A DNA stretch of 32,000 bases, taken from the NCBI GenBank assembly GCA_028713935.1, contig JAQTNI010000009.1, forward strand, positions 3,406 to 35,405, in the 5' to 3' direction. The position numbers were made by a program, and so were the translations under genes. Below are positions 7,881-28,394 of this stretch, one piece after another. Origin of the DNA: Candidatus Iainarchaeum sp. Its GTDB lineage: Archaea > Iainarchaeota > Iainarchaeia > Iainarchaeales > GCA-2688035. The notes beneath the pieces were generated by a model, which saw nothing but the letters and a program-made list of their open reading frames with translations, had not been told where the DNA came from and made no database searches. Each line of letters opens with the position of its first letter. The stretch's first letter is position 1.

Positions 7881-7886
7881 TTTTTT

Positions 7887-8732: not shown

Positions 8733-8783
8733 TAGTGCATATGTTTAAATCGGTTTCATGGCATGTTTTGTTTAGTGGTTTGT

Positions 8784-9011: not shown

Positions 9012-9017
9012 TTCTTT

Positions 9018-9360: not shown

Positions 9361-10377
9361 TTACATTCCAAGCATTTTGAGGCTGCCAAGTACCTGCACT
9401 AAAATGATTCTTATTATGAAAAACAAGGCTACTGCTATTATTCCGACTATTGGGATGTATCTTATTCCGTCTTTTTCTTTGCCAGAGTTTATTGTGCCCA
9501 TTATTAAGGAGGAGAACAGGCATGTTACTCCGAGTGCAATCAGTGCGTACATTGTTGCGAATTCTTCTGTTATTGATATTTCGGGAATTCCGATTATTCT
9601 TGTTATTGAGCTTTTTTGTGTTATTTCTTTTAATTGTTCTGGGTTCATGCTTAGCTGGCTTGTTTGCACGTTTAGCACTCCGACTATGTAAGAGGAAATG
9701 CTGAACAGTACTGGTGCTCCTATTGCTGCCCCAAAAAAAATGAGCATTATGTACATGCTTACTTCTGCTTTTGTTTCTTCTTTTAACGCGTTTTCTTCTC
9801 TTAAATCATCTGCCAGTTGTGATAATAGGTCCGCCACTTCTCCGCCGCTTCTTATGCCCTGGACTACCAGCCACATTGTTCTTTCAAGCAATGGGCTTTT
9901 GATTCTTGTTGTTATGTCTGTCAGGGCTCCTTCTATTCTTTCTCCTGCAAGGACTTTTCCGCTTGCAAGTTTTAGTTCGTCTGAAAAAACCCCGAATTCC
10001 GGCCTTGCCGATGCAAGCAGTGCCCTTTCTGTTGTCAGGCCTGATTTCATGTTTGATGAAATCAATTGCAGCACATCCGGCAGGAGTTTGTCTACAAATT
10101 TGCCCCTGCTTTCTGCAATTGTGTTTAGCCAGTAATATATGCTTCCTGCAAATCCAAGAAAAATTAGTGGAAATGTTGCAATTATTGGCAGTGAAAAGAA
10201 TATTTGGAGGTTTGCTGATATTGCTATGCTTAGCACTGCCCCGAACAAAAAAATGAATCCAACTACGCTTAGTTCCTGTATTTCCCATCCAATGTAATCC
10301 ATTTCTTTTTTGAATGCCCTTACTATGAAGGAGGGGACTATTGCGCCTACTCTTTGGTAAAAACCCATTTTTTTCAC
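9361..10377 (-). CDS. type II secretion system F-domain membrane platform protein (TadC/EpdK/J-like)
   Basis: 338-aa ORF. It has N-terminal TM helices, one T2SSF domain (LLQLISSNMKSGLTTERALLASARPEFGVFSDELKLASGKVLAGERIEGAL...VVQGIRSGGEVADLLSQLADDLREE) and C-terminal TM helices. Confidence 0.8.
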   Translation of the reverse strand: MKKMGFYQRVGAIVPSFIVRAFKKEMDYIGWEIQELSVVGFIFLFGAVLSIAISANLQIFFSLPIIATFPLIFLGFAGSIYYWLNTIAESRGKFVDKLLPDVLQLISSNMKSGLTTERALLASARPEFGVFSDELKLASGKVLAGERIEGALTDITTRIKSPLLERTMWLVVQGIRSGGEVADLLSQLADDLREENALKEETKAEVSMYIMLIFFGAAIGAPVLFSISSYIVGVLNVQTSQLSMNPEQLKEITQKSSITRIIGIPEISITEEFATMYALIALGVTCLFSSLIMGTINSGKEKDGIRYIPIVGIIAVALFFIIRIILVQVLGSLKMLGM

Positions 10378-10381
10378 TTTG

Positions 10382-11257
10382 TCAGTTCATTATTGTTGGC
10401 CGTCTTGATTTTATTATGCCAATGTACATGAATTGCATTATTGTTATTCCTATTAATAATGCCCAGAACATCATTTCGTCTATTTTTATTGCGGGAAAGC
10501 TTCCCAGTATGATAAGAAATGTCAGTCCAAGCGCAGGCGCTATCACTCCAATCATCATGTATGCCAGGGAAAGAATCCTTAGTTGAGAGGAATACATGTT
10601 TATTGCTATTCTCTGGTCTCTTGCAGCGGATTTCACTGTTTCTTTTATTATGCTTGAAATGTCTCCGCCTGCTTTCATTCCGTTTACAAGCTGCCATAAT
10701 GCTTTTCTGAAATATTCGCTTGGGTTGTTTGTGGCAAGCTTTTGGAATACTTCATCGTAAGGCGTTCCAGTGTTTATTTCGTCAACTGCTTTTGCAAATT
10801 CTTTGCTTAATTCGCCATAATTGCTTTTTGCAATCATCTGCATTGCGTCAAAAAGGCTGACTCCGCTTTTTATTTCAATCAGCAAGGTTCTTAGTGCAAA
10901 CAAGAGGTTTTTTTCCAGTTCCCTCTGCCTTTTCCTTATCTGCATTGTGGGGTACATTGAAAATTGGATAAACACTGCCAGTGCCATTATTGCTGCTATT
11001 GTGAATCCCAATAACAAAAAATTTGGAGTGACTTTTGTCAGGACTATTGTGAACAATGCGCCAAGCCATATGAAATAAAAACCTGCCAAAAAAAGCATCA
11101 TTGCAAGGTATTCCCTTATTTGGAATTCCATTCTTGCCTGCTGCAATTGCAATTCCAGGTTGGGAAAAATTCCCTTGATTTTCATTGCCAGCGGGACTAA
11201 TGGCTGTGAAAACCTTCTCAGCATCGGGACAGGGAACAGGTTGAATGGCAGAGTCAT
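10382..11257 (-). CDS. type II secretion system F-domain membrane platform protein (TadB/EpdJ/K-like)
   Basis: 291-aa ORF with one T2SSF domain (LLFALRTLLIEIKSGVSLFDAMQMIAKSNYGELSKEFAKAVDEINTGTPYDEVF...LVNGMKAGGDISSIIKETVKSAARDQR) flanked by TM helices. There is a 4-nt gap to the next platform gene. Confidence 0.8.
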   Translation of the reverse strand: MTLPFNLFPVPMLRRFSQPLVPLAMKIKGIFPNLELQLQQARMEFQIREYLAMMLFLAGFYFIWLGALFTIVLTKVTPNFLLLGFTIAAIMALAVFIQFSMYPTMQIRKRQRELEKNLLFALRTLLIEIKSGVSLFDAMQMIAKSNYGELSKEFAKAVDEINTGTPYDEVFQKLATNNPSEYFRKALWQLVNGMKAGGDISSIIKETVKSAARDQRIAINMYSSQLRILSLAYMMIGVIAPALGLTFLIILGSFPAIKIDEMMFWALLIGITIMQFMYIGIIKSRRPTIMN

Positions 11258-11260
11258 TTT

Positions 11261-12778
11261 TTACAGCTCCGGCTTTTTGTTTTTTTCCACAAGATTTTTT
11301 ATTTCATCAATGTCCTGGTAGCATTGCGCCATTATTTTGCCGACTTCGTTCACATTGTGAATGTCAAATTTTATCATCCAGTTCAATATTTTTGTTTTTG
11401 TTTTTAATTCCTGCTGTATTTCTCCCTGGCTCATTCCTGTGTGCAGTGACAATTCATCATAGAATCTTATGCTTTCATTGTGCGCGACAATCTGGTCATC
11501 GCTGCTTCTCCATCTGTAAATTATGTTTGGCTTTATTTCAAGTTCTTTTCCCCTTTTTTCAGGGATAAATTCCGCTGCTTCAAGCACTCTTCTTGATCCC
11601 AGTCTCCTGTTTCTGAACATTACAATGTTTAAGTGCACTGAATCAAGCATTGAAACTGGGATTGAAACAGGCGGGTTTACAAGCCTTGTGATTGTTTCAT
11701 CGGCTGTGTTTGCATGGATTGTGGTGTAAACACTGTGCCCTGTGTGCATTGCTTCAAACATTACTTCTGCTTCTCTCTGCCTTCTGACTTCTCCAACAAT
11801 CACCCTGTCAGGCCTCATTCTCAATGAATTCACAAGCAAATCAAGCATTGTTATTCCGCCTTTTCCTTCAGGATTCGGCTCTCTTGTTGTCAATGGAACC
11901 CAGTGCAAATAATCGGGAAGCATGAGTTCCCTAGTATCTTCAATTGAAAGCACTCTGTGGTTTGGCTGTATGAAGGGCATGCAGACATTCAAAAAGCTTG
12001 TTTTTCCCGATGCTGTTCCCCCGCTGATAATGATGTTTAATTCGTATTCCATTGCTTCCCATATCAGTGCCATTAGTTCTGCGCTGACTGTTTTTGTTTT
12101 TATAAAATCAGTTACTGTCCATGGGTCTCTTCTGAAGCGCCTTATTGTGACAGTGTTTCCCTTGCTTGAAATTGGAAAAAGAGTTGCGTTTGCCCTGTCG
12201 CCTGTTATGAGATGGGCATCAAGCAATGGCGATAAGATTGTTATTTGTTTTCCAACGCGCCTTGCGATTATGTTTGCATAGTTTTCTATGTCTGCCTCTG
12301 TTTCTATGCGGACATTTGTTTTGAGCCAGCCGTATTTTTTGTGGTAAACCCATACTGGTTCCTGGCTCCTGTTTATGACTATTTCCTCAAGGTTTCCGTC
12401 TGACAAAAGAAATTCTATTCTTCCAAGGCCCAGCATTTCATGCATTAATATTCCAACAAGCGCTTTTTTTGTTTCTTCTGTTGCGGTTGGCAGTTCGGAA
12501 TCAAGCATTTTTTGGGCTTTTTCAACGAATTTGCCGCGGATTTTTTCCACTGCATCCATGTCAAGCTGGCCTGTTCTTGCAGCTGTTTCCGCTACAAGGC
12601 TTTTTTTCAGGTTTGTGAGCAGTGCGCTTGTTCCGGCGCCATAGCTTGGAAAATTCAGGTAATACATGTTTACAAATTCTTTCGGGTCATGGATAATGTT
12701 GGTTTCCACTTTCAGGTTGTCTGTTTCCACTGTGTAAGACTCAATTACCTGGTATTTTCCGTCCATTTCTGCCTGCAT
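11261..12778 (-). CDS. type IV pilus/secretion ATPase of the GspE/VirB11 (ArlI/EpdL/TadA-like) family
   Basis: 505-aa ORF. Walker A IIISGGTASGKTSFLN, Asp box VLSIEDTRELMLP, Walker B/His box DRVIVGEVRRQREAEVMFEAMHTGHSVYTTIHA. Confidence 0.9.
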   Translation of the reverse strand: MQAEMDGKYQVIESYTVETDNLKVETNIIHDPKEFVNMYYLNFPSYGAGTSALLTNLKKSLVAETAARTGQLDMDAVEKIRGKFVEKAQKMLDSELPTATEETKKALVGILMHEMLGLGRIEFLLSDGNLEEIVINRSQEPVWVYHKKYGWLKTNVRIETEADIENYANIIARRVGKQITILSPLLDAHLITGDRANATLFPISSKGNTVTIRRFRRDPWTVTDFIKTKTVSAELMALIWEAMEYELNIIISGGTASGKTSFLNVCMPFIQPNHRVLSIEDTRELMLPDYLHWVPLTTREPNPEGKGGITMLDLLVNSLRMRPDRVIVGEVRRQREAEVMFEAMHTGHSVYTTIHANTADETITRLVNPPVSIPVSMLDSVHLNIVMFRNRRLGSRRVLEAAEFIPEKRGKELEIKPNIIYRWRSSDDQIVAHNESIRFYDELSLHTGMSQGEIQQELKTKTKILNWMIKFDIHNVNEVGKIMAQCYQDIDEIKNLVEKNKKPEL

Positions 12779-12865
12779 AAAAATCTTTTTTTTTCCATTG
12801 ATTTTTTTTAATTTGCCATATTATTAACGGGTTTTGTGGTTATTAAGTTTGCGGATTTTTGGTTT

Positions 12866-15328
12866 TCATTTTCCCAAACTTTTTTCTTTTTTGATTTTTT
12901 TTTCTTTCTTGGGTTTTGAAGGCTTTACATAATCCGCGCTTTCAATTATTGTGTCCCCGAATGCGGGGTACTCTACTTTTATGAGGTGCTGGTCTTCAAG
13001 AATGTTTAAGAGTTCTTCAAGCCGTTTTTTTTCAATTTTGGTTTCTTTCCAGAGTTCCCCTGTCCTTATTTTTCCTTTTTCCCGGATTATCTGCAAAGTA
13101 AGGTCCATGTCTGTTTCAATCCTGAATTTCATTATTTCCTTTTCATTTGTCTTTAATTTTTCTTTTTCCTTGTTTTCAAGAGTGGTGGGAAAAGTCGGGA
13201 TTTCAGCTTCTGACCAGCCGACTTCGCCGGGCTCAATAATCACTCTGCGGGGCTCTTCAGAAGTTTTTTTGAAAAACCTTGTAATGGGCAAAGCCCTTAT
13301 GTGCAATTCTTTTTTTGGCCTTTGCATTCCTTCCACTTTTGCGCTTATTCTCCCCATTTCTTCAAGTTCTTCGCTGCGCGAAGCCCAGCCCTCTTCCCGG
13401 CTTGTCTTTTCTGTTTCTTCATTTCCTGCATCAGCATCAAGAGGTTTTTCGGCTTCAATGTCACCCGGCTTTTCAATTTCAATGGGCTCCTCAATTTTTG
13501 CCTCGTAATTTTTCTGCACCTGCTCTTCTTTTTGAATTATTGTTTCATGCAGTGCCTCATTGACCTGGACATTTGTTGTTTGCTGGCTTTCTTTTTTCTG
13601 TGCTCTCCTGAAAATTCCCCCGAAAAAGCCTTTTTTTGCCTGTTGTGCAGGAACAGTTGTTTTTGCTGTTTGCACTTCAATTTCTTCCTGAGGCAATGCT
13701 GTTTGCTCTTCTGTTATCCCTGAAATTTTGCTGTAATTTGGCGCAGGCGCCTGCACCGCAATTATTTTTTCTTTCGGGGTTTCCGCGCTTTTTTGCATTG
13801 CAGGCAACTGGCCTGTTGCAGTTGTTCCTGTTTGTGTTGCCGTGCTTGTTGTTTGTGGCTGTGTTTCAGGGCTTGTTTCCTGCATTGCTGTTGCCTGCCC
13901 AGGCAAGGCTTTTTCTTCTTCTTTTTGTTTTGTTAGCCAGGGAAACTGGAATCCTTTTTTTTCTATTTCCTGTTCTGCCTGCCTCTGCAATTCGTTCATT
14001 TTTGCGAGTTTTTCAAGGCTTGCAAGCAATTGGCTGCTGTCCAATGGCTTTATTTCCTGCACAATTTTTTTTTCCGGCATTTTGTAATTGTTTAATAATT
14101 CCACAATGTAATTTTCTATTTCCATTATTTTTTCGTCGCTAACCCTGCCTGAAAGCTTTTGCTCTATTGTTTTTTCAAGTTCTTTGCTAAGCCGTTTTTC
14201 CCTGCCTTTGGGGGCTGCTTTTGTTTTTTCAAGGATTTTCTTTTTTTCTTCAAGCTCATAAAGCTTTGCCTGGTAATCCATTACTTTTTCCTGAAAATCT
14301 TGTAGAGGGATTCTGCGCTTGTAAAAATCTATTTCCAGGCGTTTCTGCATTCTTTTCATCTGGTCTATCTGCTGGTCAGTGCTGAGCATTTCCTCGTGGC
14401 TTTCTATGACAATTTTTGGCTTTGGCGATGCCCTTGCAAGGCTTGCTGCCGCAAGAGTAATTGCCTTTGCGGCTTCAGCCAGATCAGTCATTGTTTTCAG
14501 TTCCAATGGCGATTTTGTCTCTTCCCTGAAAATAATCTGGCCTTTTGCCTGTTCAGTTGCAATTTGCTCCATTTCAAGGTTTTCTTTTGCGGAAGAAACC
14601 TTGCTGAGAAGCGCTATCTGCATTTTGTAGTCCCGAATTTTTTTTGTTAGCTGGCTTTTTTTCCTGGTTTGTTCCTCTGAAAGTTTTTTTTCTTCCTGCG
14701 CATGCTTTAACTGGTTCAGTTCCCTCTGGTATCTTGCCTGCCATGATTCAAGCCTGGTTATTTTTGACCTTATTTTTTTCAGGTTTTCTTTTAATGCTCC
14801 GGGCTCTTCCCTTATTTTTTCTGAAACCCCTTCAAGCCTTTCCATTTCAGGCGAAATTGCTTCAGGCTCTCCGCTTATTGCCTGTTCAGCAAACTCTTCA
14901 AATCCTTTTTTTGTTTCAGATGCAGGAATTTCCGGCATTGTTATTTTTTCCAGTTTTTCTTCCCTTGCCTTTCCGCCAAAAAGCCTCCTGAAAATCCTTG
15001 AAAAAAAGCCCTGTTTTTTTCCTGATGTTTTTGTTTCTTCCGCAAACATCCGTTTCCTCGCTGCTTCTTCTATCTGGGATTTTATTATTTCCCTTAAAAT
15101 CGGCTTGTCACCCGAAATCTGGGTTTCAATAATTCTGCCTATTTCGCTTTTCAACTGGTCAAAAGTATGTGCCTGTGCAACAAGAAGCATTCTTTTTGCC
15201 TCATCATCCTTTGCGCCAAGGCCCTGCAAGGTTTTAATTATTTTGTCTTCTGTTTCTCCTTCTCTCAGCATTTCGCCTATTATTTTGATTATTCCTTTTT
15301 CACTTTTTTCTTCAGGCATAAAAATCAT
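12866..15328 (-). CDS. Glu/Lys-rich coiled-coil protein with two MinD-MTS-like amphipathic motifs and a C-terminal winged-helix-like domain; function unknown
   Basis: 820-aa ORF directly upstream of the ATPase gene with no TM segment. Motifs are GKKQGFFSRIFRRLFGGKA (nt 14966-15022) and AKKGFFGGIFRRAQ (nt 13598-13639). The C-terminal LQIIREKGKIRTGELWKETKIEKKRLEELLNILEDQHLIKVEYPAFG lies at nt 12959-13132. Confidence 0.7.
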   Translation of the reverse strand: MIFMPEEKSEKGIIKIIGEMLREGETEDKIIKTLQGLGAKDDEAKRMLLVAQAHTFDQLKSEIGRIIETQISGDKPILREIIKSQIEEAARKRMFAEETKTSGKKQGFFSRIFRRLFGGKAREEKLEKITMPEIPASETKKGFEEFAEQAISGEPEAISPEMERLEGVSEKIREEPGALKENLKKIRSKITRLESWQARYQRELNQLKHAQEEKKLSEEQTRKKSQLTKKIRDYKMQIALLSKVSSAKENLEMEQIATEQAKGQIIFREETKSPLELKTMTDLAEAAKAITLAAASLARASPKPKIVIESHEEMLSTDQQIDQMKRMQKRLEIDFYKRRIPLQDFQEKVMDYQAKLYELEEKKKILEKTKAAPKGREKRLSKELEKTIEQKLSGRVSDEKIMEIENYIVELLNNYKMPEKKIVQEIKPLDSSQLLASLEKLAKMNELQRQAEQEIEKKGFQFPWLTKQKEEEKALPGQATAMQETSPETQPQTTSTATQTGTTATGQLPAMQKSAETPKEKIIAVQAPAPNYSKISGITEEQTALPQEEIEVQTAKTTVPAQQAKKGFFGGIFRRAQKKESQQTTNVQVNEALHETIIQKEEQVQKNYEAKIEEPIEIEKPGDIEAEKPLDADAGNEETEKTSREEGWASRSEELEEMGRISAKVEGMQRPKKELHIRALPITRFFKKTSEEPRRVIIEPGEVGWSEAEIPTFPTTLENKEKEKLKTNEKEIMKFRIETDMDLTLQIIREKGKIRTGELWKETKIEKKRLEELLNILEDQHLIKVEYPAFGDTIIESADYVKPSKPKKEKKIKKEKSLGK

Positions 15329-15346
15329 CTTCAGCTTGTATACTTA

Positions 15347-16498
15347 TCAGCTTGTTCCAATTTTAAGGTTTGTAAAGCCGGATTTTCCGACATTAAAATC
15401 AAAAGCATTGAATTTAACAAGAGCAATCGGCTCTTTGAAAATAATTTTTGTTGATGCAATTACTGGTGCGTGCTGGTCTGCTTTGTTGTCCATTCCAATA
15501 ATTACTTTCGGGTCGAAATCTTCTAATTTTGACTCATTTAGGATAAAAATATCTGTATAGCCTTCGCCCGCAAGTTTTAGGCTGAAATAATTGTCTGCTG
15601 TGCCAACATGATTTGAGCCTTCTGTAGAACAGCAGGAAAGGTCGCAGGGAGGCTGTGGGTCGCAATCCGCAATGGGGATCTGGCTATTGATATTAACATA
15701 AGGATTGGCATTTGATTGGAGAAATTCGTTTAACAGTGGGTTTTTTGAGCCATCCCCGAGGTCGCCATAATATTCCCATTTTTGTATCTGAATTGGCATG
15801 CCTGCATTTGGGCCTGTTGTTGGCTTTGGAATTGTCACATTAAAATCAATCATTCTTATTTTGCTTATGTCAAAGCTGCATCCATCATCTTCTCCATCAG
15901 TAAAAATTTGCAGCAAGGTTCCGTCAGGCTGCGGATTATAGGATATGCATTCGTCCAAAATCAGGTATGTGAACTTGTCGTTTCCTCCCCAATCGGAATT
16001 TTTAGCAGCCCTTGCAGTTATGTTTAAGTCTCCGTTTATGTTTTTGTCTGAAACAAAAATCGAGTAAAGGTTCAGCGCATCATACATCGCTTTGAGCTGT
16101 TCATCATCGCTGCTTATCGGGGTTTCCTGTGAAATTTCTATCCATCCGCATCCGCTTGGCGAAGCATTTGGGCCTGTGCAGGGGCAAATGTCATGGTCTT
16201 CACTTTCGGGGCAGCCATTTTCTTGGACACAGTCATCTTTGCAGGCCATGTTTCCCGCATCATATTCAAACGGAGTTAGAATCCTGCTCTGCAGCCTTCC
16301 TGCATAGCCTGTTTTTACTGCCAATGTTTCGTTGTAAATGTTTGCAAAGCCAGTGTTTACTGCGTCAAAAGCGGTTTCTTCAACAGTGCCTTGTTTTTGC
16401 CCGATTGTTGTTTGTTTTACCCCGCTTCCTGCAAGAATTATTGCCAGTCCCATTAGGAATATTACAAATGCAAGGAAAAAGCCTTTTTTGCTGTTCAT
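15347..16498 (-). CDS. membrane-anchored or pilin-like Cys-rich extracellular protein, function unknown
   Basis: 383-aa ORF. MNSKKG/FFLAFVIFLMGLAIILAG is a possible class III signal or a signal anchor. A Cys-rich segment follows (ACKDDCVQENGCPESEDHDICPCTGPNASPSGCGW). The ATG abuts the stop of the upstream gene (TAAATG at 16498/16499). Confidence 0.6.
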   Translation of the reverse strand: MNSKKGFFLAFVIFLMGLAIILAGSGVKQTTIGQKQGTVEETAFDAVNTGFANIYNETLAVKTGYAGRLQSRILTPFEYDAGNMACKDDCVQENGCPESEDHDICPCTGPNASPSGCGWIEISQETPISSDDEQLKAMYDALNLYSIFVSDKNINGDLNITARAAKNSDWGGNDKFTYLILDECISYNPQPDGTLLQIFTDGEDDGCSFDISKIRMIDFNVTIPKPTTGPNAGMPIQIQKWEYYGDLGDGSKNPLLNEFLQSNANPYVNINSQIPIADCDPQPPCDLSCCSTEGSNHVGTADNYFSLKLAGEGYTDIFILNESKLEDFDPKVIIGMDNKADQHAPVIASTKIIFKEPIALVKFNAFDFNVGKSGFTNLKIGTS

Positions 16499-19400: not shown

Positions 19401-20950
19401 AATGCCCAGTATCCAACCAAATTTGCATTGTTATTGAAAACCCCGTTATAATGCTGGTTAATTTCTACTGCAGTAAGCACCCTGTGGTAAACTCTTACTT
19501 CGTCTATTATGCCGTTAAATTCGTTTGTGATTGGCGGGACTCCTGGCCAGCCTGTTAAAGAATCACTGCCTGTTTTCCAAAATCCTGCATAATTTTTGGC
19601 TGTTCTTGTGATTGTGTCTCTTGCCACTGGGTTTGGGTTTCCGTCAACATAAAGTTTCATTCCTACTGTGCTGCTTAGTGTTGCTACAACATGGTGCCAT
19701 TGCTGATTATTGTATCCTACCATGCTGCTTAGATTTGCAACAATATTTTGCTGTTGTTGGCTATTGTCTCCTGCCAATTGAGGAACTACCATTGAGGGGC
19801 TTGTTATTACTTTTTTTGTTGTGCCGGAAATAATTCCAAAGGAAAGAGTGCCATTGTCGCGCATATAAATTAGCCTGTCTGTATTTGTGCTTGTTCCTAC
19901 CTGGCTGTTTCCAAAGCCTATCAGCCTTCCGCCATTTATGTTATCCGAAGTTGTTTTGAACCATAATTCTATGGAAAAATTTGTGGGATTTGTAAAGCCA
20001 TTATATGTTGTTACAAAAGTGTTTGCTGAACCAAACCTTAGTGCGTGGCTTCCTCTTTTTCCCGGTGCAACCCATTTTTCCGTTGTGTTTGTGCAGTATC
20101 CATAATTGATTTGCCCGATTGGGCTTGCAGTTGCTATTGGCGAGTCCATGTCAAATTTTGACATTGTAAGGCTTCTGTCTATTATTGTCATTATTGCTAT
20201 TGGGTCTCTTATTCCGCTTTTTTCGCTTATTGTGACTGTTGCCACTTCATTGGCATCTACTCCGTCTTCAGAATCATAACAGTACATTTTTGATGTTGGC
20301 ACAAAAAGTTCCGGCGTCTCAGTGCCTGGAGTGTTTGTTGTACTTACTTTTGTTGTTATTGTTGTTGCTGTTTCGTCCAATTGCAGCGTTGTGTTTTTTT
20401 TGTTTTCAGAGGCTGTTTCTATTATGCAGTTGTTTGCAATGTTTCCTTTCATATAGGGCTGCCTTTTCATGAATGCCTGGCTTCCAGTGTAAATTTCCTG
20501 GTTTGAGGGTATTTGCTGGCCTCCTGTTGCTTCTGAAACTTTGTTGAAGCATTCGTTGAATTGTGTTGTGCCAGGAGGGGGATTTCTGCAGCTTGCCAGG
20601 TCTGTGTTTTTTTGTTCAAATTGTTCTATTTGTATGTTTAAATCCATGTTTTCCGGCAATATTTTTTTCATTTCAAAGTAAAGCAAATCTGCGTCAAAAT
20701 TTGTAAGCGGGTTTCCTGTGTTGTCTACAAATATTTGCCCTATTATGCCGTTGTTGTCCATTGCAGTCACTGCATCGTCAAGCATTTGTTTTGCGTTTGC
20801 CTGCCGGGTTATGCTTGCAGTTGGCGCTTCCGTCATTATTCCCAATCCAAGATAGGATATCAGGGCAATGAGAATTGCTATTGCAAACAATGTGTCCAAT
20901 GAAATTACAAATCCTTTTTCACGGGTTTTTTCAGCAATCATTTTTTCCAA
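16499..20950 (-). CDS. giant pilin-anchored adhesin: class III signal-like N-terminus, split vWA domain with a nested LamG/ConA-like lectin domain, Cys-rich C-terminus
   Basis: 1483-aa ORF. The first codon is TTG at 20950, and the ATG at 20941 (MIAEKTREKG/FVISLDTLFAIAILIAL) is the more likely start. MIDAS-like IIDRSLTMS lies at nt 20159-20200. LamG elements (FSIELWFK, QWHHVVATL, KLYVDG, IIDEVRVYHRVL) lie at nt 19436-20053. The vWA remainder (GETNIGDAIG, KFIVLLTDGQAN, ITVYAIGFGGD) lies at nt 17318-17983. Confidence 0.85.
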   Translation of the reverse strand: MEKMIAEKTREKGFVISLDTLFAIAILIALISYLGLGIMTEAPTASITRQANAKQMLDDAVTAMDNNGIIGQIFVDNTGNPLTNFDADLLYFEMKKILPENMDLNIQIEQFEQKNTDLASCRNPPPGTTQFNECFNKVSEATGGQQIPSNQEIYTGSQAFMKRQPYMKGNIANNCIIETASENKKNTTLQLDETATTITTKVSTTNTPGTETPELFVPTSKMYCYDSEDGVDANEVATVTISEKSGIRDPIAIMTIIDRSLTMSKFDMDSPIATASPIGQINYGYCTNTTEKWVAPGKRGSHALRFGSANTFVTTYNGFTNPTNFSIELWFKTTSDNINGGRLIGFGNSQVGTSTNTDRLIYMRDNGTLSFGIISGTTKKVITSPSMVVPQLAGDNSQQQQNIVANLSSMVGYNNQQWHHVVATLSSTVGMKLYVDGNPNPVARDTITRTAKNYAGFWKTGSDSLTGWPGVPPITNEFNGIIDEVRVYHRVLTAVEINQHYNGVFNNNANLVGYWAFNESSGNIASDSSGNNNTGALYNWLNGGGPSCVLNPDTPAQTTTNCPLSKASTAYTNKQSSGSYDFSSQGTLNKILSNDTLYFISSGTTYNGACKNNYAGDGTQGIWVTQPNGAIVNNVGYLYYEAISGNTVLSLGPSYGYNYGVNAWSDSPVGYYVYLRQNPASITASGLSASGTGTHEGTYQEGENPTDCSNYGNWQKISSYTFPYDLVKYNQIYGIGWQISNYQNYSGDCRWPRFYVTHKNSSGAVDWTSSTCAQGTPCSINWGSSLSGPFETTGDYELWAWSDSAVTFNVQTTVSNSFGLVFGNFGRTDSISGGTCSGATCTSTTTPMIPGETNCPTNPSNAVASLPSIESSATYLDTTTITDNYKFRGLKISTSLIGDSGAVCAGGAIGFENPISGSSNLKWYYPRPRKGWLDNNGYGVNCTNADSMDTCTSQSIIYDNTATGQPIPAGDYSVIGWAEYLTSYNIDWSIKRIDAALSAAITFINNAQWKSEDKMGIASYSTTAVLNQGPILLNAAGKTNLIGTLNGTDSFGPDPAKTMNPSGETNIGDAIGIASAAFNTQNKKFIVLLTDGQANKCEGGTACTPAEAVQYAILQADNARSTGITVYAIGFGGDAAAEDLRDIAKDPCTSYDATGACEEARMNGSNPKYPECFSNWPSLEINKVQQCGRYYFAADQSTLTEIYALIAEEIGTAIPNTKITIEAEPGTEICKCEKYETIGTDAYKCLKADDTPACTTNPEWTNQSITFDVDIAGEYKSQTFKERIPCTGEYCQSDTIKFPPPQTTIIKDQNNYIWGTETECDSSCMPNCPYDLATCRQTVPFGYRDCQIKFTCIGTDCGTIYGPQDTRLNFELNCVGFTAPKDLYIGFYKNNTMTTHIDTDLPPSGCTGNCGTFSITADKNLQYQPAAPNYTVSTSNTKLLGEGYIWGVISGAKDCSLHNTAQIYCLGESKVYYFKVQYAAWVK

Positions 20951-21040
20951 TCCGGCTTTAATTTATTTTATTATAATTAATATTTTTTTAATATAAAATT
21001 GTATTGCCAATGTTTTTTTGGGCAGTTTTAGAAACCAAAG

Positions 21041-21670
21041 TCAATTGTATGCCCAGAGTTCAATTGTTGCTGTTCCGCTGTAGCCAGCCCCTTCATAATA
21101 AACTATTCTTTTTTGCGCAATTACTTTTTTTGCGTATGCGCTCGGGGTTACGCCTGTTTCCATTTCTGTTTCCGAACCGCGTATTTTTTCCTTAATCAAT
21201 TTTTTTTCCGATGCATTATTAGGGCTAAAATAATAAATCTGGAAATAATAATTCATGTCTCCCAGGAGCAATAATTTTGCCTTTGTTTTTTCATAATCGC
21301 CAAAGCAGTTTGCCTCGCAATCAGGCCAGATTTTTCCATATTCCACAAATTTTGCAAGCTTGTTTGAGTCTATTGCCCTGTCTCTTTTTGCAAGGCCAAT
21401 GAACAGCACATTGTCAATGCTTGGGGCAAATTGCCAGTCTGTTCCGCCGTTTATTTTTTCGCCTGGGCTTTTTACAATAAAATTCAGTGTTCTTGCGCTC
21501 GTTGCAGCCATTTCATAGTCTTTCAGCTGGTTTTCTGCAAAAGAATTCTGGTTTTCCCAGATTGTAACCGCAATTGCAAGCACTGCGAGAAAAATTGTTG
21601 TTCCAATGACTATGTCAAGGGAAACAGCCTGTGCTTTTTTGTCACTGCCCAGTGAATACAACAAAACCAC
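21041..21670 (-). CDS. pilin-like protein (class III signal peptide, Gln +1), minor pilin candidate
   Basis: 209-aa ORF. SDKKA/QAVSLDIVIGTTIFLAVLAIAVTIW. It overlaps the upstream pilin-like gene by 29 nt, so the exact start is uncertain. Confidence 0.6.
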   Translation of the reverse strand: MVLLYSLGSDKKAQAVSLDIVIGTTIFLAVLAIAVTIWENQNSFAENQLKDYEMAATSARTLNFIVKSPGEKINGGTDWQFAPSIDNVLFIGLAKRDRAIDSNKLAKFVEYGKIWPDCEANCFGDYEKTKAKLLLLGDMNYYFQIYYFSPNNASEKKLIKEKIRGSETEMETGVTPSAYAKKVIAQKRIVYYEGAGYSGTATIELWAYN

Positions 21671-22052
21671 CTTTTTTTGACAATTTATAGTTTCTAACTG
21701 TTAAAGAAATTCCACTTGCGTTTGTGTCCCCATGATCCTGATCAATCTGTGCGTTTCCAAAATAATGGCACGAATAAAGCCCCACTGTTATCTGCCCAGG
21801 ATTTCCTATGATTTTTTGGATTGCGACATTTTCTCTTGCAACAAAAATATTTTTTTCCGCTATTCCCTGGCTTGAATAAATTTCTGAAATCGCATCTGCT
21901 ATTTTGTTGCATTCAATGCCGTCTGAATTTATGCCTGTTATAAAATTGGTTTGAACTGTTTGCTGCGCATAAGCAGTTACTCCAATCAAGAGCAATGTCA
22001 TTGCAACAAGCGCAGCAATGAGGAATTCAAAAGAAACCTGGGCTTTTTTCAA
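21642..22052 (-). CDS. pilin-like protein (class III signal peptide, Gln +1), minor pilin candidate
   Basis: 136-aa ORF. MKKA/QVSFEFLIAALVAMTLLLIGVTAYA. Confidence 0.7.
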   Translation of the reverse strand: MKKAQVSFEFLIAALVAMTLLLIGVTAYAQQTVQTNFITGINSDGIECNKIADAISEIYSSQGIAEKNIFVARENVAIQKIIGNPGQITVGLYSCHYFGNAQIDQDHGDTNASGISLTVRNYKLSKKGGFVVFTGQ

Positions 22053-22061
22053 GGTTCCACC

Positions 22062-22589
22062 TTACTTTTCCAGCCGGATTAATTTCCTGTCAGTCCAGCT
22101 TACTTTAATTTTGTACCTGAAATTGTTTATCAAAATCGCAGTGTCAGTCCCGTCAGGTATTATAAGCCTTGCTTTTGTGGGATAAAGCAATTCGTTTCCA
22201 GAAATTTCAATTACTTTTACTGCGCTTGATTTTATGCAGTCATCCCCATTAGAGCACTGCTTGCCTGCGCCGCTGCAATTGCAGTTTGCTCCCTGTGCTC
22301 CATCACAGCCAATCATTTCCGCGTTTGTTTTGCAGAGGCTGTAGATGCTTATGCCTGTCACTTCGCCTGGCCAGCTTACTTCTGCAAATTGGACATTGCC
22401 CGGGCCCATTGCATAAACAAGGTTTATTGTTTGTACAAGATTGTCAAGGCTTTCGCCTGCCTGTTGTGTGCTAATGTTCTGGCTTGTTGTTGCAAGTGAA
22501 GCGCTGAACAGGACAATGACTATTACCATTGCAAAAACGCTTACCATCAGGTATTCCATTGAAGCCTGCGCGGTTTTTTCTACTTTCAT
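22062..22589 (-). CDS. pilin-like protein (class III signal peptide, Gln +1), minor pilin candidate
   Basis: 175-aa ORF. MKVEKTA/QASMEYLMVSVFAMVIVIVLFSASL, with a Cys-rich loop (CDGAQGANCNCSGAGKQCSNGDDC). Confidence 0.7.
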   Translation of the reverse strand: MKVEKTAQASMEYLMVSVFAMVIVIVLFSASLATTSQNISTQQAGESLDNLVQTINLVYAMGPGNVQFAEVSWPGEVTGISIYSLCKTNAEMIGCDGAQGANCNCSGAGKQCSNGDDCIKSSAVKVIEISGNELLYPTKARLIIPDGTDTAILINNFRYKIKVSWTDRKLIRLEK

Positions 22590-22654
22590 AGCACCAAAAA
22601 TAATAAGGGAATTCTAATATTTAATTTAATCCATTGCTGTTACAGCCAAGAGTT

Positions 22655-25600
22655 TTAGCTGCAATTGCCGCTGTTCCAGGTTTTGCCTGCAAGAACACAA
22701 ATTTTGTCTGCTGTCAAGGCTTTTTTCCAGATTGAAACATCGTCAATCAAACCAGCAAAATGACCCGGTTCATCCTGCCAGCCAAAACCAATATACGCCG
22801 CATGCAAATCGCTTGCATCAGAATAATCATGTAAAATCAGGGCAGGATTACTGGATTCGCCAGCCAGGCTTCCATCAATATAATACTTCCAGCCAACGCC
22901 GCTTTCAAAAACAAAAGCAACCTGATGCCACTCATTTTCGGCAATTGTTCCAGTGGAAGTAGGCCAAGAATTAGACTGGTTGCTTCCGTTCCGAACCATT
23001 GAAACCAAATGGCCAAAAGAATAAGAAGAAGAACTGCCGGCACTGAAATAATCAAATCCGCCTAAATGTTGGGTTACAATATTTATCTGATTCACGTAAT
23101 CCGGTTTAACCCAGGCAACAACAGTAGTAGAACTGTTCTCGCCGCCATACGTTGAAAGAGCACTCAAAGAACTGTCAAAACGAATATGGTCAGGGCCAGA
23201 AACACCACCGCGGAAAGAAAAAGCACCACTACCGTTGTGGCCTCCAGTTGCCTGACAAGTCGCTCCCACAACTGTTCCGTTACGATGATTTCCGGACTGG
23301 TCCCAGGCATTGCAATGGTCAAAACTCCAATAAGCAACCAAGTCAGGGTCGCAATCGTTTGGGCAACTGGTAAAACTTTCCCCGCCAGCATTTTCACAAA
23401 TGCCATTATTGTTGCAAGAAGGGAGTCCATAAGAATGGCTACTCCAATCTAAAGGGCCAGTATTATCAGCAACCTCTACTCCATCAGAAAAACCGTCAAA
23501 ATCAGAATCCGGATTAGTCGGGTCAGTACCGCGGGCAAACTCCTGCGAATTGATAAGGCTATCATTATCAGGGTCGCCAAGGCCATTCTGCGAAGTAATA
23601 TTCCCAAAATACTGCACTTCCCAATCATCCCGCAAACCATCCCCATCTGCATCCAAACCCTCAGTAGTAAAGGAATCGACAGAACCCCAAAGAATCTCAT
23701 TCAAAATATCGGCAGCCCGATTTGAAGAACGGATGCGGAAATTATAATCAGTATTCGGATTCAAACCAGAAAGCGTTATGCTATGAAAAGTCGTAAAAGA
23801 AGGGTCACCTATGATCCCATCTGGGCCACTAAAATAGGTAGTAGGATGTGTCTCATGATAGGGATTGTACCACCAAGAACCATTGCTTGTGTAAGCAACC
23901 TCGCTATCAGAAGGCAAATTAGTCTCCCACTGAATCGTAAAAGAAGTGCCAGTAACTGGTATTATCTGAATATTTGTCGGAGCCCTAAACCAGCCATTCT
24001 GTGCATCAACTGGCCAAGCAGTGTCAAGATTTGATGAATACGAAGCTTTCCTCTGATCATAAAGAGGCTTAAAATAACTCAGCCAAGCACCAGAACGGCT
24101 AAATTGTGCACTATTAAGATTCTGCGCCAAAACACGGAACATTTCTTTTGTGGAAATAGCAGCACGCGCACTACTAACGCGAATATTTGAGCCAATTGCC
24201 TGGGACATTCCATATCCTGAAACAAAAAATCTAAAATAAGGGTTATTAGGGCTCTCTACTTCAGCCATGGGCCCGGTTTCTCCTGTAAGCGTGTAATCAA
24301 CATACGCATCAATCATGACTGCCCTTCGGCCAGTATAAGCCAAATAAGCATCCCAGGCATCAACAGAATCATGATGATAAATAATTCCGTTATCACCAAT
24401 ATCTGTGCGGACTTGGCGAATAAAATTATAATCCTGTTGCAAATCCCCTGCATCCGCATTGTCAAAATACCAGCCATCAAAATTATTTTCTTCCTGGAAT
24501 TCTTTCATCCAAGACAAGGTTACCTGGATATCCTGCTGGTTCCACCAGTATATGGATGGCGCAGACATATAAGTAATGACTTTGAAATTGTGTGCATGGG
24601 CAAAAGAAACAAAATCCTGCAATAACTGTTTGTCAATGTCCCGGATTTTATACCCCATAATGCCAGAAGGCAAAAGCACCGGGACTTCCCCTATTTTACC
24701 GGGAGTGTTTTCATATGCAACGCTTGCCCAAAGCAAAAAAACTCCAAAACCGTCGTTAACATAATTGTCCACATTTGTCCCGGACATCAGATTAGTCAAG
24801 TCATCAGGGGTGTATAAGAAATGAACAAAAGGCTTTGAGCTTGCCCCATATAATTTTTCAAAATCAAATTTTTTTGGGGGAAAAACCATGTTTCCCATTG
24901 AACTGCCGGCTCCCAAAGAAATGCTTGTAGAATCTGTTGTTTCATTTGAAACAACTGGGTTTCCCTGCATTTTTGCATGCAAAGAACCGCCATACCCGTC
25001 TGTCCAAATTCTGTCTGTTCCTGTTCCTTTGTTCCAGGGCGCAGCAGCAACCAAATTGTTGTAGGTGTAGGCGAATGGCTCTTTGGCTTCAATAATGAAA
25101 AAAGAATCCGAATTGAAAACAAAGCGTGCTTTGTCGCTTTGCACAATTGCCTGTATTGTTGTTGCGGATTCAACAGTTAAATTTGAAATTGTGTTTTCAA
25201 AAGAGATTTCTGCAACTTTTCTGGGGGTTTCTGTGTCATTATTGGTTGCGGGGTCAATGCGGCGCCATAATTCAATTCCGTCTTGTTTTATAATGTACAA
25301 GGCGCCTGTGGTTGTAATTTCAATTTGATCTTCGTCTTGAAAAGCAGAAAAGATGCTCATGCCAAAAAACCCGTTGCCAGTGCAGTCCAGTGGGCAGTTG
25401 CTTGCTGTTTCGCCTGCCTCGCATGTTCCGTTGTTGTTGCAAACGGCTTGTCCTGTGCATTGGCAGTTTGTGCAGGTAAATCCTGCTTGGCATTGCGCTT
25501 GCCCTGTCCCGTCGCATTGTTCTGTTTGGCCTTCGCTGTTTGGGTCGGTTATAATATTGTCTCCGCAATAGGTTGTGCAGTCTGTTGGGCAAGTGGCATT

Positions 25601-26107
25601 GGTTTCTCCTGTTTCGCATGTTCCGTTTCCACAGTTGCTTGTTGTTTGGCAGTCAGTGTCGTTTAAAGGAGTGCAGGTTGCTGGGCAGCAGTTGTCTCCG
25701 TTTGTGCAGGTTGTTATGTCTGTGTAGGTGCAGGTTTGGCTTGTGCAGGTTGCTGTTTTGCAGTTTTGTGATGTGCAGTCTGCTTCTGTTGTACAACTTG
25801 TTCCTGTGTTTGTTTTGTTGAGGCAGTCTGGTGTTATTAGTATTGCTGTTGTTCCTGTGCATTTGTTTGCTGCGAATGACCATTCGCAGTCTGAGTATTG
25901 GCAGTTTCCTGTTCCATCCGGGTCGTTTCCTGCTTGGCCACATTGTGTGGATGAGAATTTTGCGCAGATTGTGTTCAGGACTTCTATTTGTGTGCTGTTG
26001 ATATTTGTGCCGCTGGCATTGAAGAGTATTACAATTGCCAGTGCTGCCACTATTACTGCCCCGCCAATTATCAGCAGGTATTCCAAACTGCTTTGCGCGT
26101 TGTTCAA
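22655..26107 (-). CDS. giant pilin-anchored multidomain surface protein: Cys-rich modules, TIM-barrel glycoside-hydrolase-like region, Fn3, Ca-binding TSP3-like repeats, C-terminal LamG
   Basis: 1150-aa ORF with a TTG start at 26107. MNNA/QSSLEYLLIIGGAVIVAALAIVILF is the class III signal. Cys/Thr-rich region at nt 25379-25966. Hydrolase-like region (FVSFAHAHNFKVITYM, NNFDGWYFDNADAG, GIIYHHDS) at about nt 24008-24850. Fn3-like (FTIQWETN...TDYNFRIRS) at nt 23663-23995. DADGDGLRDDWE / DPDNDS / DSDFDGFSDG at nt 23453-23656. LamG (LVAYWSFD...EWHQVAFVF...YYIDG...GLIDDVSIWKKAL) at nt 22703-23347. Confidence 0.85.
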   Translation of the reverse strand: MNNAQSSLEYLLIIGGAVIVAALAIVILFNASGTNINSTQIEVLNTICAKFSSTQCGQAGNDPDGTGNCQYSDCEWSFAANKCTGTTAILITPDCLNKTNTGTSCTTEADCTSQNCKTATCTSQTCTYTDITTCTNGDNCCPATCTPLNDTDCQTTSNCGNGTCETGETNATCPTDCTTYCGDNIITDPNSEGQTEQCDGTGQAQCQAGFTCTNCQCTGQAVCNNNGTCEAGETASNCPLDCTGNGFFGMSIFSAFQDEDQIEITTTGALYIIKQDGIELWRRIDPATNNDTETPRKVAEISFENTISNLTVESATTIQAIVQSDKARFVFNSDSFFIIEAKEPFAYTYNNLVAAAPWNKGTGTDRIWTDGYGGSLHAKMQGNPVVSNETTDSTSISLGAGSSMGNMVFPPKKFDFEKLYGASSKPFVHFLYTPDDLTNLMSGTNVDNYVNDGFGVFLLWASVAYENTPGKIGEVPVLLPSGIMGYKIRDIDKQLLQDFVSFAHAHNFKVITYMSAPSIYWWNQQDIQVTLSWMKEFQEENNFDGWYFDNADAGDLQQDYNFIRQVRTDIGDNGIIYHHDSVDAWDAYLAYTGRRAVMIDAYVDYTLTGETGPMAEVESPNNPYFRFFVSGYGMSQAIGSNIRVSSARAAISTKEMFRVLAQNLNSAQFSRSGAWLSYFKPLYDQRKASYSSNLDTAWPVDAQNGWFRAPTNIQIIPVTGTSFTIQWETNLPSDSEVAYTSNGSWWYNPYHETHPTTYFSGPDGIIGDPSFTTFHSITLSGLNPNTDYNFRIRSSNRAADILNEILWGSVDSFTTEGLDADGDGLRDDWEVQYFGNITSQNGLGDPDNDSLINSQEFARGTDPTNPDSDFDGFSDGVEVADNTGPLDWSSHSYGLPSCNNNGICENAGGESFTSCPNDCDPDLVAYWSFDHCNAWDQSGNHRNGTVVGATCQATGGHNGSGAFSFRGGVSGPDHIRFDSSLSALSTYGGENSSTTVVAWVKPDYVNQINIVTQHLGGFDYFSAGSSSSYSFGHLVSMVRNGSNQSNSWPTSTGTIAENEWHQVAFVFESGVGWKYYIDGSLAGESSNPALILHDYSDASDLHAAYIGFGWQDEPGHFAGLIDDVSIWKKALTADKICVLAGKTWNSGNCS

Positions 26108-27626: not shown

Positions 27627-28328
27627 ATGTTTTGTGGAAAACCAAGTGCGCAGGCTGGTCTTGAGTATTTAATGACTTATGGCTGGGCATTGGTTTTGAT
27701 TGTGACTGTTGCGAGTGCTTTGTTTTTTGTTATGGGCACTCCGCAGAATCAGTTTGTTTGTTCTAGCAGTGACCCTACAAAGATTTTGCTGGAAAGTTAT
27801 AACCTGCCCTATTCGCCGAATTTTTCTGCAGGGGGCTCTGTGCCTCCAGAGTCAAGCTGTTATCCTGCTTCCGCTAGCAAGTGTGAAGTCTGGGGGAACC
27901 CATGGGCATCAACCCCGGATATTCCGGGAAAAATGGTTTTAAGGAATGCAACCGGAGGGGAAATAAAAATAATAAGCCTTGTTCCTTGGTCTGGCTCAGA
28001 CGCTATAACAATGCCTGGTTGCACTTATTTCTGGTGTTTTTTAGGCGGTGCAAATCCTTGCGCTGTGGAAGCTTCGGCTTTGTATGCTACTTTTAATGGC
28101 ATAAAAATAAATTTGATAATCCCAACTGCCCCTTTGAGTGTTTCAGGAGGCCGGAGCATTGTTATTGATAATCTTGTCTTAAGCAAAAGAGCCCGCCCAG
28201 GCACAACTTGTGACCCGCAAAATTTTTCTTTTCCACAAAACCCTTCTTTTGTTATAACTTATCTTGACAGGTCTGGTTACCAAAAAGATGTCACCATTAC
28301 TTGCAAGGGCTATCCTTCAAAAACCTGA
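27627..28328 (+). CDS. archaeal type IV pilin-like protein (class III signal peptide, Gln +1), paralogue of 6511-7038
   Basis: 233-aa ORF. MFCGKPSA/QAGLEYLMTYGWALVLIVTVASALFFVM..VCSSSDPTK and the C-terminal ITYLDRSGYQKDVTITCKG match the N- and C-termini of the first pilin. There is no SD. An AT-rich box (TTAAAAATAAAAA, about 27590-27603) lies 25-37 nt upstream. Confidence 0.75.
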   Translation: MFCGKPSAQAGLEYLMTYGWALVLIVTVASALFFVMGTPQNQFVCSSSDPTKILLESYNLPYSPNFSAGGSVPPESSCYPASASKCEVWGNPWASTPDIPGKMVLRNATGGEIKIISLVPWSGSDAITMPGCTYFWCFLGGANPCAVEASALYATFNGIKINLIIPTAPLSVSGGRSIVIDNLVLSKRARPGTTCDPQNFSFPQNPSFVITYLDRSGYQKDVTITCKGYPSKT

Positions 28329-28394
28329 TTTGCTGAATCTGATTTTCCTGCGAAAAAGCATAATTTTAAAGCCAGTTTTTTGCCAATTATTCTA

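Follow-up and report, generated by a model that had tools for sequence, protein, structure and literature searches.

Type IV pili of the Epd-like/Tad clade are defined by two contiguous platform genes that each encode one T2SSF domain (PMC6668835), and clade 1 loci carry two TadC genes together with large LamG-clan adhesins, KaiC and von Willebrand factor A (vWA) proteins also being linked to archaeal type IV pili (PMC4858521). Here we analyze a locus resembling these systems, a 17-kb gene cluster and its flanks on a 32,000-nucleotide stretch of DNA (the window; contig JAQTNI010000009.1, positions 3,406–35,405) from the DPANN archaeon Candidatus Iainarchaeum sp. For DPANN archaea, a 2026 survey counts them among the carriers of 'system 1' (10.64898/2026.04.22.720090), the co-cultured Micrarchaeon Mia14 possesses a clade-1-type pilus system of the Methanococci/Thermococci group with LamG genes linked to its pilus loci (PMC5498576), the Tad-like clusters of Nanohaloarchaeota and Undinarchaeota include two kaiC genes and lack a peptidase (PMC9563170), and DPANN dark-matter genomes contain pilin islands (PMC6393860). 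Comparative genomics has likewise revealed vWA proteins, KaiC partners and large adhesins of the LamG/DUF2341 type at type IV pilus loci of archaea (PMC4858521, PMC5498576, PMC9563170). As DPANN loci with TadA/B/C-like, kaiC and LamG genes have been reported in genome papers and in the 2026 census, the kind of locus is already known; the supplements of PMC4858521 and PMC5498576 hold no entry classifying an Iainarchaeota or Micrarchaeota ATPase and no gene list for the Mia14 locus.

The locus, known here from its genes alone, probably encodes a type IV pilus whose subtype is common among DPANN phyla, Iainarchaeota, Micrarchaeota and Aenigmatarchaeota among them, and which stands nearer to Epd/Tad ('system 1') than to the archaellum or the halo-pilus. 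It is a lineage-specific version of a known machine and not a new kind. In line with the type IV filament superfamily, it encodes a secretion ATPase, T2SSF platform proteins and class III-type pilins with a hydrophobic helix (Table 1). Since the support for its closer placement is mixed, we file it as a DPANN subtype that is probably nearer Epd/Tad, and not as a demonstrated Epd member. As judged from the sequences, newly defined are an invariant module of four genes coding for a winged helix-turn-helix (wHTH) protein, the ATPase and the two platform proteins F1 and F2, a family of small pilins (pilX), a modular pilin with a split vWA domain (VWA1483) and the family of a 383-amino-acid (aa) pilin-like protein (p383).

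Ten open reading frames (ORFs) run on the minus strand from position 26107 down to 9361, and ORF listing and gap measurement confirmed the coordinates, spacings and overlaps that an earlier note had given for this DNA. The intergenic gaps, counted from 9361 upward, measure 4, 3, 87, 18, 0, 90, −29, 9 and 65 nt, including a TAAATG stop/start junction at 16498/16499 and a 29-nt overlap that joins the 136-aa and 209-aa ORFs and becomes shorter if the latter (p209) begins at either of two downstream TTG codons. The operon proposed in that note is putative, as the A/T-rich gaps of 65–90 nt that precede p175, the vWA gene and the ATPase gene could hold internal archaeal promoters. No tRNA or Rfam features were found in the window, and a scan for bacterial sigma-70 promoters and terminators was uninformative, the host being an archaeon.

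The comparison set comprised 82 related loci (L001/L002 and 80 from GTDB species genomes), in which presence was counted by blastp of the relatives' ORFs against the window proteins and refined by profile hidden Markov models (HMMs). A groundwater relative with 76% ATPase identity showed the same order of three small ORFs, a 1197-aa vWA protein, proteins of 353 and 798 aa, the ATPase and two T2SSF proteins, followed past the second T2SSF gene by a small ORF on the opposite strand and then by a KaiC-like gene and a DUF7504 gene. The Iainarchaeota consensus begins with a divergent transglutaminase-like gene, p175, p136 and p209, the vWA gene, p383 and cc820, the gene of the wHTH protein, and continues with the ATPase, F1 and F2, an opposite-strand pilX gene, two glycosyltransferases in some loci, and KaiC with DUF7504. 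Dozens of independent genomes repeat this order, and chance can thus be dismissed as the origin of the arrangement. The wHTH protein, ATPase, F1 and F2 form the invariant four-gene module, carried by 75 of the 82 loci, and many loci also retain small pilins, p383 and a large pilin with a vWA domain. The neighbours known from the relatives recur in the window as pilX1, the glycosyltransferases and the KaiC/DUF7504 pair (66–1423). The locus extends beyond the ten ORFs listed earlier, as two plus-strand pilin genes and the KaiC/DUF7504 pair had been missed, while the gene of the 1150-aa protein (L1150) counted among the ten is not conserved.

Domain calls with Pfam and NCBIfam models on the window proteins recovered the assignments made in the earlier note, namely T2SSE, two T2SSF domains, Laminin_G_3 and VWA in the 1483-aa protein, and likewise the Cys-rich character of p383. 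The Walker A, Asp box, Walker B and His box motifs of the ATPase are all intact. Its sequence is 100% identical to that of a protein encoded on a 35.4-kb contig of an NCBI metagenome-assembled genome (MAG) named 'Candidatus ainarchaeum sp.' (Iainarchaeota, DPANN), bearing out the DPANN-like origin proposed earlier. MAGs of Diapherotrites/Iainarchaeota, Micrarchaeota and related DPANN groups supply thousands of homologues with 53–83% identity. One homologue, P0095 (670 aa), contains an intein splicing domain (PF14890). For the two platform proteins, T2SSF scores of 62.7 and 60.4 bits were obtained (Pfam cut-off 25.2), and PDB sequence searches with F1 and F2 returned nothing significant. Among the NCBIfam models the ATPase scored best with FlaI (275 bits, cut-off 550), with 188 bits for the TadA family (cut-off 373) and 138 bits for BasE of the bindosome.

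Over 290 ungapped core columns, the DPANN ATPases show identities of 39% with afGspE, 38% with CpaF and 34.5% with FlaI, whereas afGspE and FlaI share 45% identity and each only 33–34% with CpaF. A four-point test by a distance method, with three reference sequences only, transcribed from PDB alignments and including none of clade 1 or clade 4, gave the split (DPANN, CpaF) versus (afGspE, FlaI) in 200 of 200 bootstraps; it thus yields only a placement outside the archaellum/halo-pilus pair, nearer to CpaF. An ungapped TRxPNxEG segment is common to the DPANN ATPases and CpaF, whereas afGspE and FlaI have a 2-residue deletion there.

Two traits of Epd/clade 1 are present: the platform is divided over two contiguous genes with one T2SSF domain each (74–80 of the 82 loci), and several window pilins have DUF361/UPF0333-type N-termini with Gln at +1. 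The Epd pilus of Methanococcus maripaludis is further alike in the Glu at +5 of its pilins, in several minor pilins encoded within the locus, in large Concanavalin-A-clan (LamG/DUF2341) adhesin-like proteins, in major pilins lying outside the main cluster and in a RecA/KaiC-superfamily secondary ATPase nearby. In contrast, the Epd major pilin is a helix-only protein of ~60 aa, whereas pilX, the candidate here, and its relatives measure 130–240 aa and include a β-sandwich; no short pilin ORF family was seen among ORFs of at least 50 aa. The order is ATPase then platform here and platform then ATPase in Epd, a wHTH protein is joined to the module, vWA and p383 pilins are present, and neither an EppA/EpdA peptidase nor a FleN/MinD gene is linked. 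With the bacterial Tad (Flp) pilus the locus shares the ATPase–platform–platform order, which equals tadA-tadB-tadC, the 38% identity of the ATPase core with CpaF in the same insertion/deletion state, and a vWA protein with a pilin-like N-terminus that parallels TadG. Unlike Tad, its ATPase has archaeal N- and C-terminal extensions and stays below the cut-off of the TadA model, and secretin (RcpA), TadZ/CpaE, TadD and a short Flp pilin are missing, the Pfam scans having given no secretin, TadZ or Flp families. Being unusually close to CpaF and sharing the tadA-tadB-tadC order, the DPANN ATPases are useful taxa for a phylogeny of Tad origin, and the locus bears on the proposed descent of bacterial Tad pili from an archaeal Epd-like system.

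The loci in DPANN genome papers (PMC5498576, PMC9563170, PMC6393860) are alike in a TadA-like ATPase with a TadB/C-like platform, linked kaiC genes, LamG proteins and a peptidase encoded elsewhere. Unlike here, their annotations run to one paragraph each, and in those texts we found no description of the pilX family, of p383, of the pilin with the split vWA domain or of the invariant wHTH gene. That the accessory set lies outside any characterized archaeal pilus, as claimed before, stands only for experimentally studied systems; LamG, vWA and KaiC proteins at type IV pilus loci had already been described by comparative genomics.

Eight window proteins have pilin-type N-termini ([K/R/N/T/S][G/A]↓[Q/F], the arrow standing before position +1) with a single N-terminal hydrophobic helix, and the class III motif is conserved across the homologues of these proteins; several of them had been recognized as pilin-like before, and their +1 residue is Gln or Phe. 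Gln at +1 and Glu at +5 are found in pilX1, pilX2, p175, p136 and L1150. The relatives of p175 keep [KR][GA]↓Q..[LVM]EY followed by a hydrophobic helix, and the fast-evolving p136 is detected by blastp in only 4 loci.

The relatives encode pilX on the opposite strand directly past F2; blastp detected it in 50 loci and the HMM in 61 of the 82, with 1–3 copies, and several homologues are named 'UPF0333 family' by JGI. Throughout DPANN, pilX proteins begin with an N-terminus that hardly varies, [K/R][G/A]↓Q[A/S]ALEYLMTYGWAL, and the invariant positions in pilX1 are Q6, L9, E10, Y11, L12, M13, T14, Y15, G16 and W17. The AlphaFold2 model of pilX1 (73-sequence alignment) reached a predicted local distance difference test (pLDDT) score of 87 and consists of a helix over residues 3–33 and a β-sandwich, a modelled fold that corresponds to the general archaeal type IV pilin architecture. 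Being conserved, small, stand-alone and multi-copy, the pilX family is the best candidate for the filament-shaft (major) pilin. Residues 76–78 form an N-x-T sequon with N76 invariant and T78 nearly invariant, which suggests a conserved N-glycosylation site.

As proposed earlier, two large LamG proteins are pilin-anchored. The metal-ion-dependent adhesion site (MIDAS) of VWA1483 is complete (D258xSxT, T1065 and D1090), and its vWA domain is split past the first MIDAS loop by an insertion of ~730 residues that holds a Laminin_G_3 domain. In its relatives, the motifs D.SGS, G.T..G and (L/M)(S/T)DG surround a different insert with LVIVD-like repeats. The intact MIDAS on a pilin-anchored protein argues for a predicted ligand binding at the filament. 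L1150 starts with a class III signal, followed by a Cys-rich region, a centre of ~450 aa, an fn3/Pur_ac_phosph_N domain, three TSP3_bac-type Ca-binding repeats (DxDxDG) and a C-terminal Laminin_G_3 domain, and contains three copies of G-x-C-E-x-G-E...C-P-x-D-C. As the central ~450 residues (~250–720) have no match in Pfam or PDB sequences, the enzyme reading of this protein made before finds no support. Only two weak partial homologues were found among the 82 loci, sited on the other side of the locus, and L1150 is for this reason considered a lineage-specific addition outside the conserved set.

As comparison systems for a pilus tip we take two modular pilins of Streptococcus sanguinis, PilB with a vWA and PilC with a lectin module, and the minor-pilin tip complexes of type IVa pili and type II secretion systems with PilY1. 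The likeness lies in four to five co-encoded minor pilins, one without an acidic residue near +5, and in vWA and lectin-type modules on the filament; the relatives of VWA1483 moreover have β-propeller-type repeats, echoing the vWA plus propeller of PilY1. In contrast to the bacterial complexes, the modules here directly follow class III signals of the archaeal kind, an inserted module divides the vWA domain, and sequence homology was detected only at the level of domain families. The protein p383, which lacks the acidic residue and was found in 44 of the 82 loci by the family HMM, is by analogy with GspK-type minor pilins a candidate for the tip or cap.

What we expected least is the strict adjacency of the wHTH gene to the ATPase gene across several DPANN phyla. 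The wHTH HMM located a gene immediately before that of the ATPase, and co-directional with it, in 75 of the 82 loci, extending to loci of Aenigmatarchaeota, Woesearchaeota and Nanoarchaeia, and the encoded proteins range from 72 to 1010 aa. The window protein cc820 had been described as a coiled-coil protein; its cytoplasmic nature holds, but the C-terminal winged-helix domain had been missed. Wide conservation is limited to its last ~100 residues, and a profile of this region matched winged-helix regulators in the PDB (LrpA, E = 3e-4), with individual family members matching HTH_24, TrmB, TFIIE_alpha and MarR. Besides a long charged linker, cc820 contains the basic amphipathic motifs KKQGFFSRIFRRLFGGK (residues 105–120) and KKGFFGGIFRR (566–576). 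Family members, of which ~242 cluster representatives were found among 1.84 billion proteins, typically begin with a short basic amphipathic segment such as MSLIEKLVKKFRRKK, and many end Lys-rich. In the literature searched on archaeal and DPANN pili we found no description of a wHTH gene beside the ATPase; a precedent is given by ArnR and arCOG00381, wHTH regulators that are associated with the membrane and control archaellin and pilin genes (PMC4858521). The wHTH protein is a candidate regulator, motor adaptor or DNA-binding module. A bolder proposal, which we consider rather unlikely, is that it forms an undescribed, integral part of the pilus motor on the cytoplasmic side, in which a basic amphipathic helix at the N-terminus is followed by a spacer of 0 to ~900 aa, the wHTH domain and a Lys-rich tail, and which would either act as a membrane-tethered factor coupling the assembly state to pilin transcription or handle DNA for import; if the latter were true, it would make the pilus a DNA-import device for nucleotide-auxotrophic DPANN cells.

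In the mechanism we propose, a class III signal peptidase encoded elsewhere would cut the prepilins past [K/R][G/A], and an ATPase hexamer docked on a heterodimeric F1/F2 platform would polymerize pilX1 and pilX2 into the filament shaft. The proteins p175, p136, p209, VWA1483 and p383 may form a priming and tip complex, which would be capped by p383 and display the MIDAS vWA adhesin and LamG lectin-like modules in the way of bacterial minor pilins with PilY1 or TadG, while L1150 would add LamG, fn3 and Ca-binding modules in this lineage. In the cytoplasm, the wHTH protein and KaiC/DUF7504 would regulate the ATPase, serve it as adaptors, or influence the expression of pilin genes. The machine most likely serves adhesion to surfaces or to other cells, and a putative attachment to host cells is plausible. 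DPANN archaea presumably live in attachment to other cells, through contact molecules of which few are known; the analysis resolves the 17-kb cluster into defined components that can be tested and are found again in several DPANN phyla, comprising the four-gene motor module, a sharply conserved pilin family as a target for antibodies, proteomics and cryo-electron tomography, a metal-dependent vWA/LamG tip-adhesin candidate and a putative KaiC-type regulatory pair.

Several observations weigh against the placement near Epd/Tad or against the roles assigned to the parts. The candidate major pilins have 175 and 233 aa, and the 175-aa pilX1 is modelled as globular and not as a short helix. EppA and FleN/MinD-type genes are unlinked, and the KaiC protein that is present is not ArlH/FlaH. 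The window encodes no prepilin peptidase, as the earlier note had stated: the two platform genes are its only polytopic ORFs, and the absence follows from the lack of a third such ORF with every flanking ORF otherwise assigned. In the 82 relatives, polytopic ORFs within 10 kb were only transporters and antisense artefacts (ABC-2 permease, UbiA, CorA, SpoIIM, MscS); the single FlaK-like peptidase of Mia14 is encoded outside its pilus loci (PMC5498576). Of the class III signals, conserved family-wide, the Pfam model (Class_IIIsignal, PF04021; cut-off 23.7 bits) passed threshold only for the L1150 N-terminus, the other pilins being weak. A FlaFind-like regular expression recovered 6 of the 8 pilin-like proteins and one antisense ORF, and since its 4 hits to reversed-sequence decoys mark it as unspecific, family-wide conservation was used for the pilin calls. 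A Foldseek search of the pilX1 model against the PDB gave generic Ig-like matches only (best E = 0.075, template-modelling score ~0.3), so that a link to any solved pilin is not claimable, and a PDB sequence search with pilX1 returned nothing significant. The AlphaFold2 model of p383 (6-sequence alignment, pLDDT 48) was unusable. The division into pilX as major pilin and the operon pilins as tip complex draws on gene position, conservation and analogy, and the ATPase quartet carries the limits given above. Support for the Epd/Tad-like label of the earlier note is partial: the split platform, the Gln at +1 and the position of the ATPase, closer to CpaF and apart from the archaellum/halo-pilus group, speak for it, the globular major-pilin candidate and the lack of a linked peptidase against it.

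Part of this evidence would suit a clade 2 ('euryarchaeal', PilA/halo-pilus type) adhesion pilus whose platform was split secondarily, a reading that keeps the mechanism and changes ancestry and label. Among full-length PDB matches, the ATPase scores highest with the clade 2 protein afGspE (234 bits, residues 10–489; FlaI 179, CpaF 170), excerpts of published Tables S2 and S3 assign every A. fulgidus ATPase outside the archaellum to clade 2, and the window ATPase has N- and C-terminal extensions of the afGspE/PilB3 type, with PilB3_C borderline in close homologues. The candidate major pilins stand alone with a globular domain as in PilA systems, KaiC is linked to clade 2 loci, many of which have two tadC genes (PMC4858521), and two tadC genes also occur in clade 4A and 4B loci (PMC4858521, 10.64898/2026.04.22.720090). 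Moreover, the only DPANN genomes in PMC4858521 (N. equitans, Nst1) fall in clades 2 and 4. However, in the quartet afGspE pairs with FlaI and the DPANN ATPases side with CpaF in every bootstrap, the ungapped TRxPNxEG segment follows the same division, and system 2 has a single platform gene in the 2026 survey (10.64898/2026.04.22.720090). We regard clade 2 membership as possible yet doubtful, and retain a pilus nearer Epd/Tad as the probable identity.

Two >1100-aa proteins with pilin-type N-termini would also fit a short pseudopilus or a mere anchor that displays large LamG, vWA or enzyme-like proteins, a bindosome-like 'functionalized' filament and not a long adhesive pilus; the large central domain of L1150 could be enzymatic, and a preprint proposes that many archaeal filament machines are functionalized with class-III-signal binding proteins (10.64898/2026.04.22.720090). 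We consider this unlikely, as most genomes with the machine also encode the small, highly conserved and often multi-copy pilX family, as would be expected for a true filament shaft, substrate-binding-protein and ABC-transporter genes are not linked, and the BasE model remains at its low score. A filament machine for DNA uptake, with the wHTH domain and Lys-rich tail handling DNA at the cytoplasmic face, would explain why both sit beside the ATPase in 75 of the 82 loci and would agree with the pilus-mediated DNA import proposed for DPANN (PMC9563170, PMC5498576). Yet genes for a ComEC-like channel, DprA or nucleases are not linked in the window or the related loci, and wHTH domains are equally common as transcription factors and protein-binding modules, with a precedent in ArnR/arCOG00381 (PMC4858521), which leaves DNA uptake quite improbable. 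That the locus encodes an archaellum, the rotary swimming organelle, is practically negligible: FlaI is the best NCBIfam model for the ATPase and a KaiC-family ATPase is linked, but FlaI stays at half its cut-off, ArlH reaches 47 of 215 bits, the platform is split, the ATPase falls outside the FlaI/afGspE pair, and archaellin and the arlC, D, E, F, G and X genes were not found in the window or related loci. With every archaellum-specific component absent, the archaellum was rejected, in agreement with the earlier note.

Table 1 Features of the pilus locus and its neighbours in the window (the arrow stands before position +1)
Feature	Description	Position	Strand	N-terminus	Details
DUF7504 protein	degenerate KaiC/RecA-like partner of KaiC	66..713	−		in 30/82 loci, adjoining KaiC
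KaiC	single-domain KaiC-family ATPase	713..1423	−		KaiC 214 bits; KaiC_arch_3 156 bits; ArlH 47 bits (cut-off 215)
GT4 pair	two GT4-family glycosyltransferases	1501..3898	−		in 5–6 loci at 60–68% identity, same relative position
pilX1	stand-alone pilin, candidate major pilin	6511..7038	+	MNSRG↓QAALEYLMTYGWAL	175 aa
F2	second platform protein, one T2SSF domain	9361..10377	−		distant F1 paralogue, 21% identity; in 74/82 loci (blastp)
F1	platform protein, one T2SSF domain, TadB/TadC-like half	10382..11257	−		four hydrophobic segments; in 80/82 loci (blastp)
ATPase	secretion (assembly) ATPase, GspE/VirB11/TadA superfamily	11261..12778	−		T2SSE 120 bits
cc820	820-aa cytoplasmic protein, C-terminal wHTH and Lys-rich tail	12866..15328	−		wHTH residues ~735–795 (nt 12944–13126)
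p383	383-aa Cys-rich pilin-like protein	15347..16498	−	KKG↓FFLAFVIF	F +1, no acidic residue near +5; 12 Cys
VWA1483	1483-aa modular pilin, LamG and VWA/VWA_2	16499..20950	−	EKG↓FVISLD	F +1, D +6; in 43/82 loci (blastp)
p209	small pilin-like protein, putative minor pilin	21041..21670	−	KKA↓QAVSLD	Q +1, D +6; in 23 loci
p136	small pilin-like protein, putative minor pilin	21642..22052	−	KKA↓QVSFEFL	Q +1, E +5
p175	small pilin-like protein, putative minor pilin	22062..22589	−	KTA↓QASMEYL	Q +1, E-Y +5/+6; same position in 22 loci (blastp)
L1150	1150-aa modular pilin-like protein	22655..26107	−	MNNA↓QSSLEYL	Class_IIIsignal 25.3 bits, N-terminus alone
pilX2	same-family paralogue of pilX1	27627..28328	+	KPSA↓QAGLEYLMTYGWAL	233 aa
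Transglutaminase-like	transglutaminase-like/CEP76-peptidase-like protein	28380..29066	+		in 23/82 loci, opposite strand, upstream of pilin genes
Toxin–antitoxin run	HicB-like ORF, PIN, RHH-like ORF, AbiEii, AbiEi, HicB, HicA	5266–9251			
Beta-CASP protein	443-aa beta-CASP metallo-beta-lactamase	26197–27528	−		between the L1150 gene and pilX2
Bacterial-type enzymes	CoaE (dephospho-CoA kinase), CoaD-like cytidylyltransferase, type I (GapA-like) glyceraldehyde-3-phosphate dehydrogenase	3968–5041; 30457–31458			

Among the neighbours, the KaiC gene occurs in 36 of the 82 loci with up to 81% identity, usually just past F2 and pilX, and its product may be a regulator or partner of the secretion ATPase. 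The GT4 genes sit between pilX and KaiC in several relatives, and a glycosylation of pilins by the pair is possible. The transglutaminase-like protein has Cys, His and Asp at plausible catalytic spacing (FLCSLL ... THAFV ... ILDP), and its link to the pilus is uncertain.

In the window, toxin–antitoxin modules and coaE/coaD separate F2 from its conserved neighbours. The toxin–antitoxin run lies where relatives have F2 followed directly by pilX, and looks like an insertion into a conserved pilus neighbourhood. An Iainarchaeota-type pilus locus was also seen on contigs filed as Falkowbacteria, Chloroflexota, Thaumarchaeota and Methanosarcinales MAGs (L013, L015, L016, L059, L073), of which L015, L016 and L059 have the glycosyltransferase–KaiC–DUF7504 neighbours as well, with identity up to 81%; these five contigs are most likely mis-binned. 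The beta-CASP protein matched the aCPSF1 model only from position 175, so that it lacks the KH domains, and scored 338 bits on the type VII CRISPR Cas14 MBL-CASP model (cut-off 800). The bacterial-type CoaE, CoaD-like and GapA-like genes, found here in a DPANN archaeon, may be inter-domain transfers.

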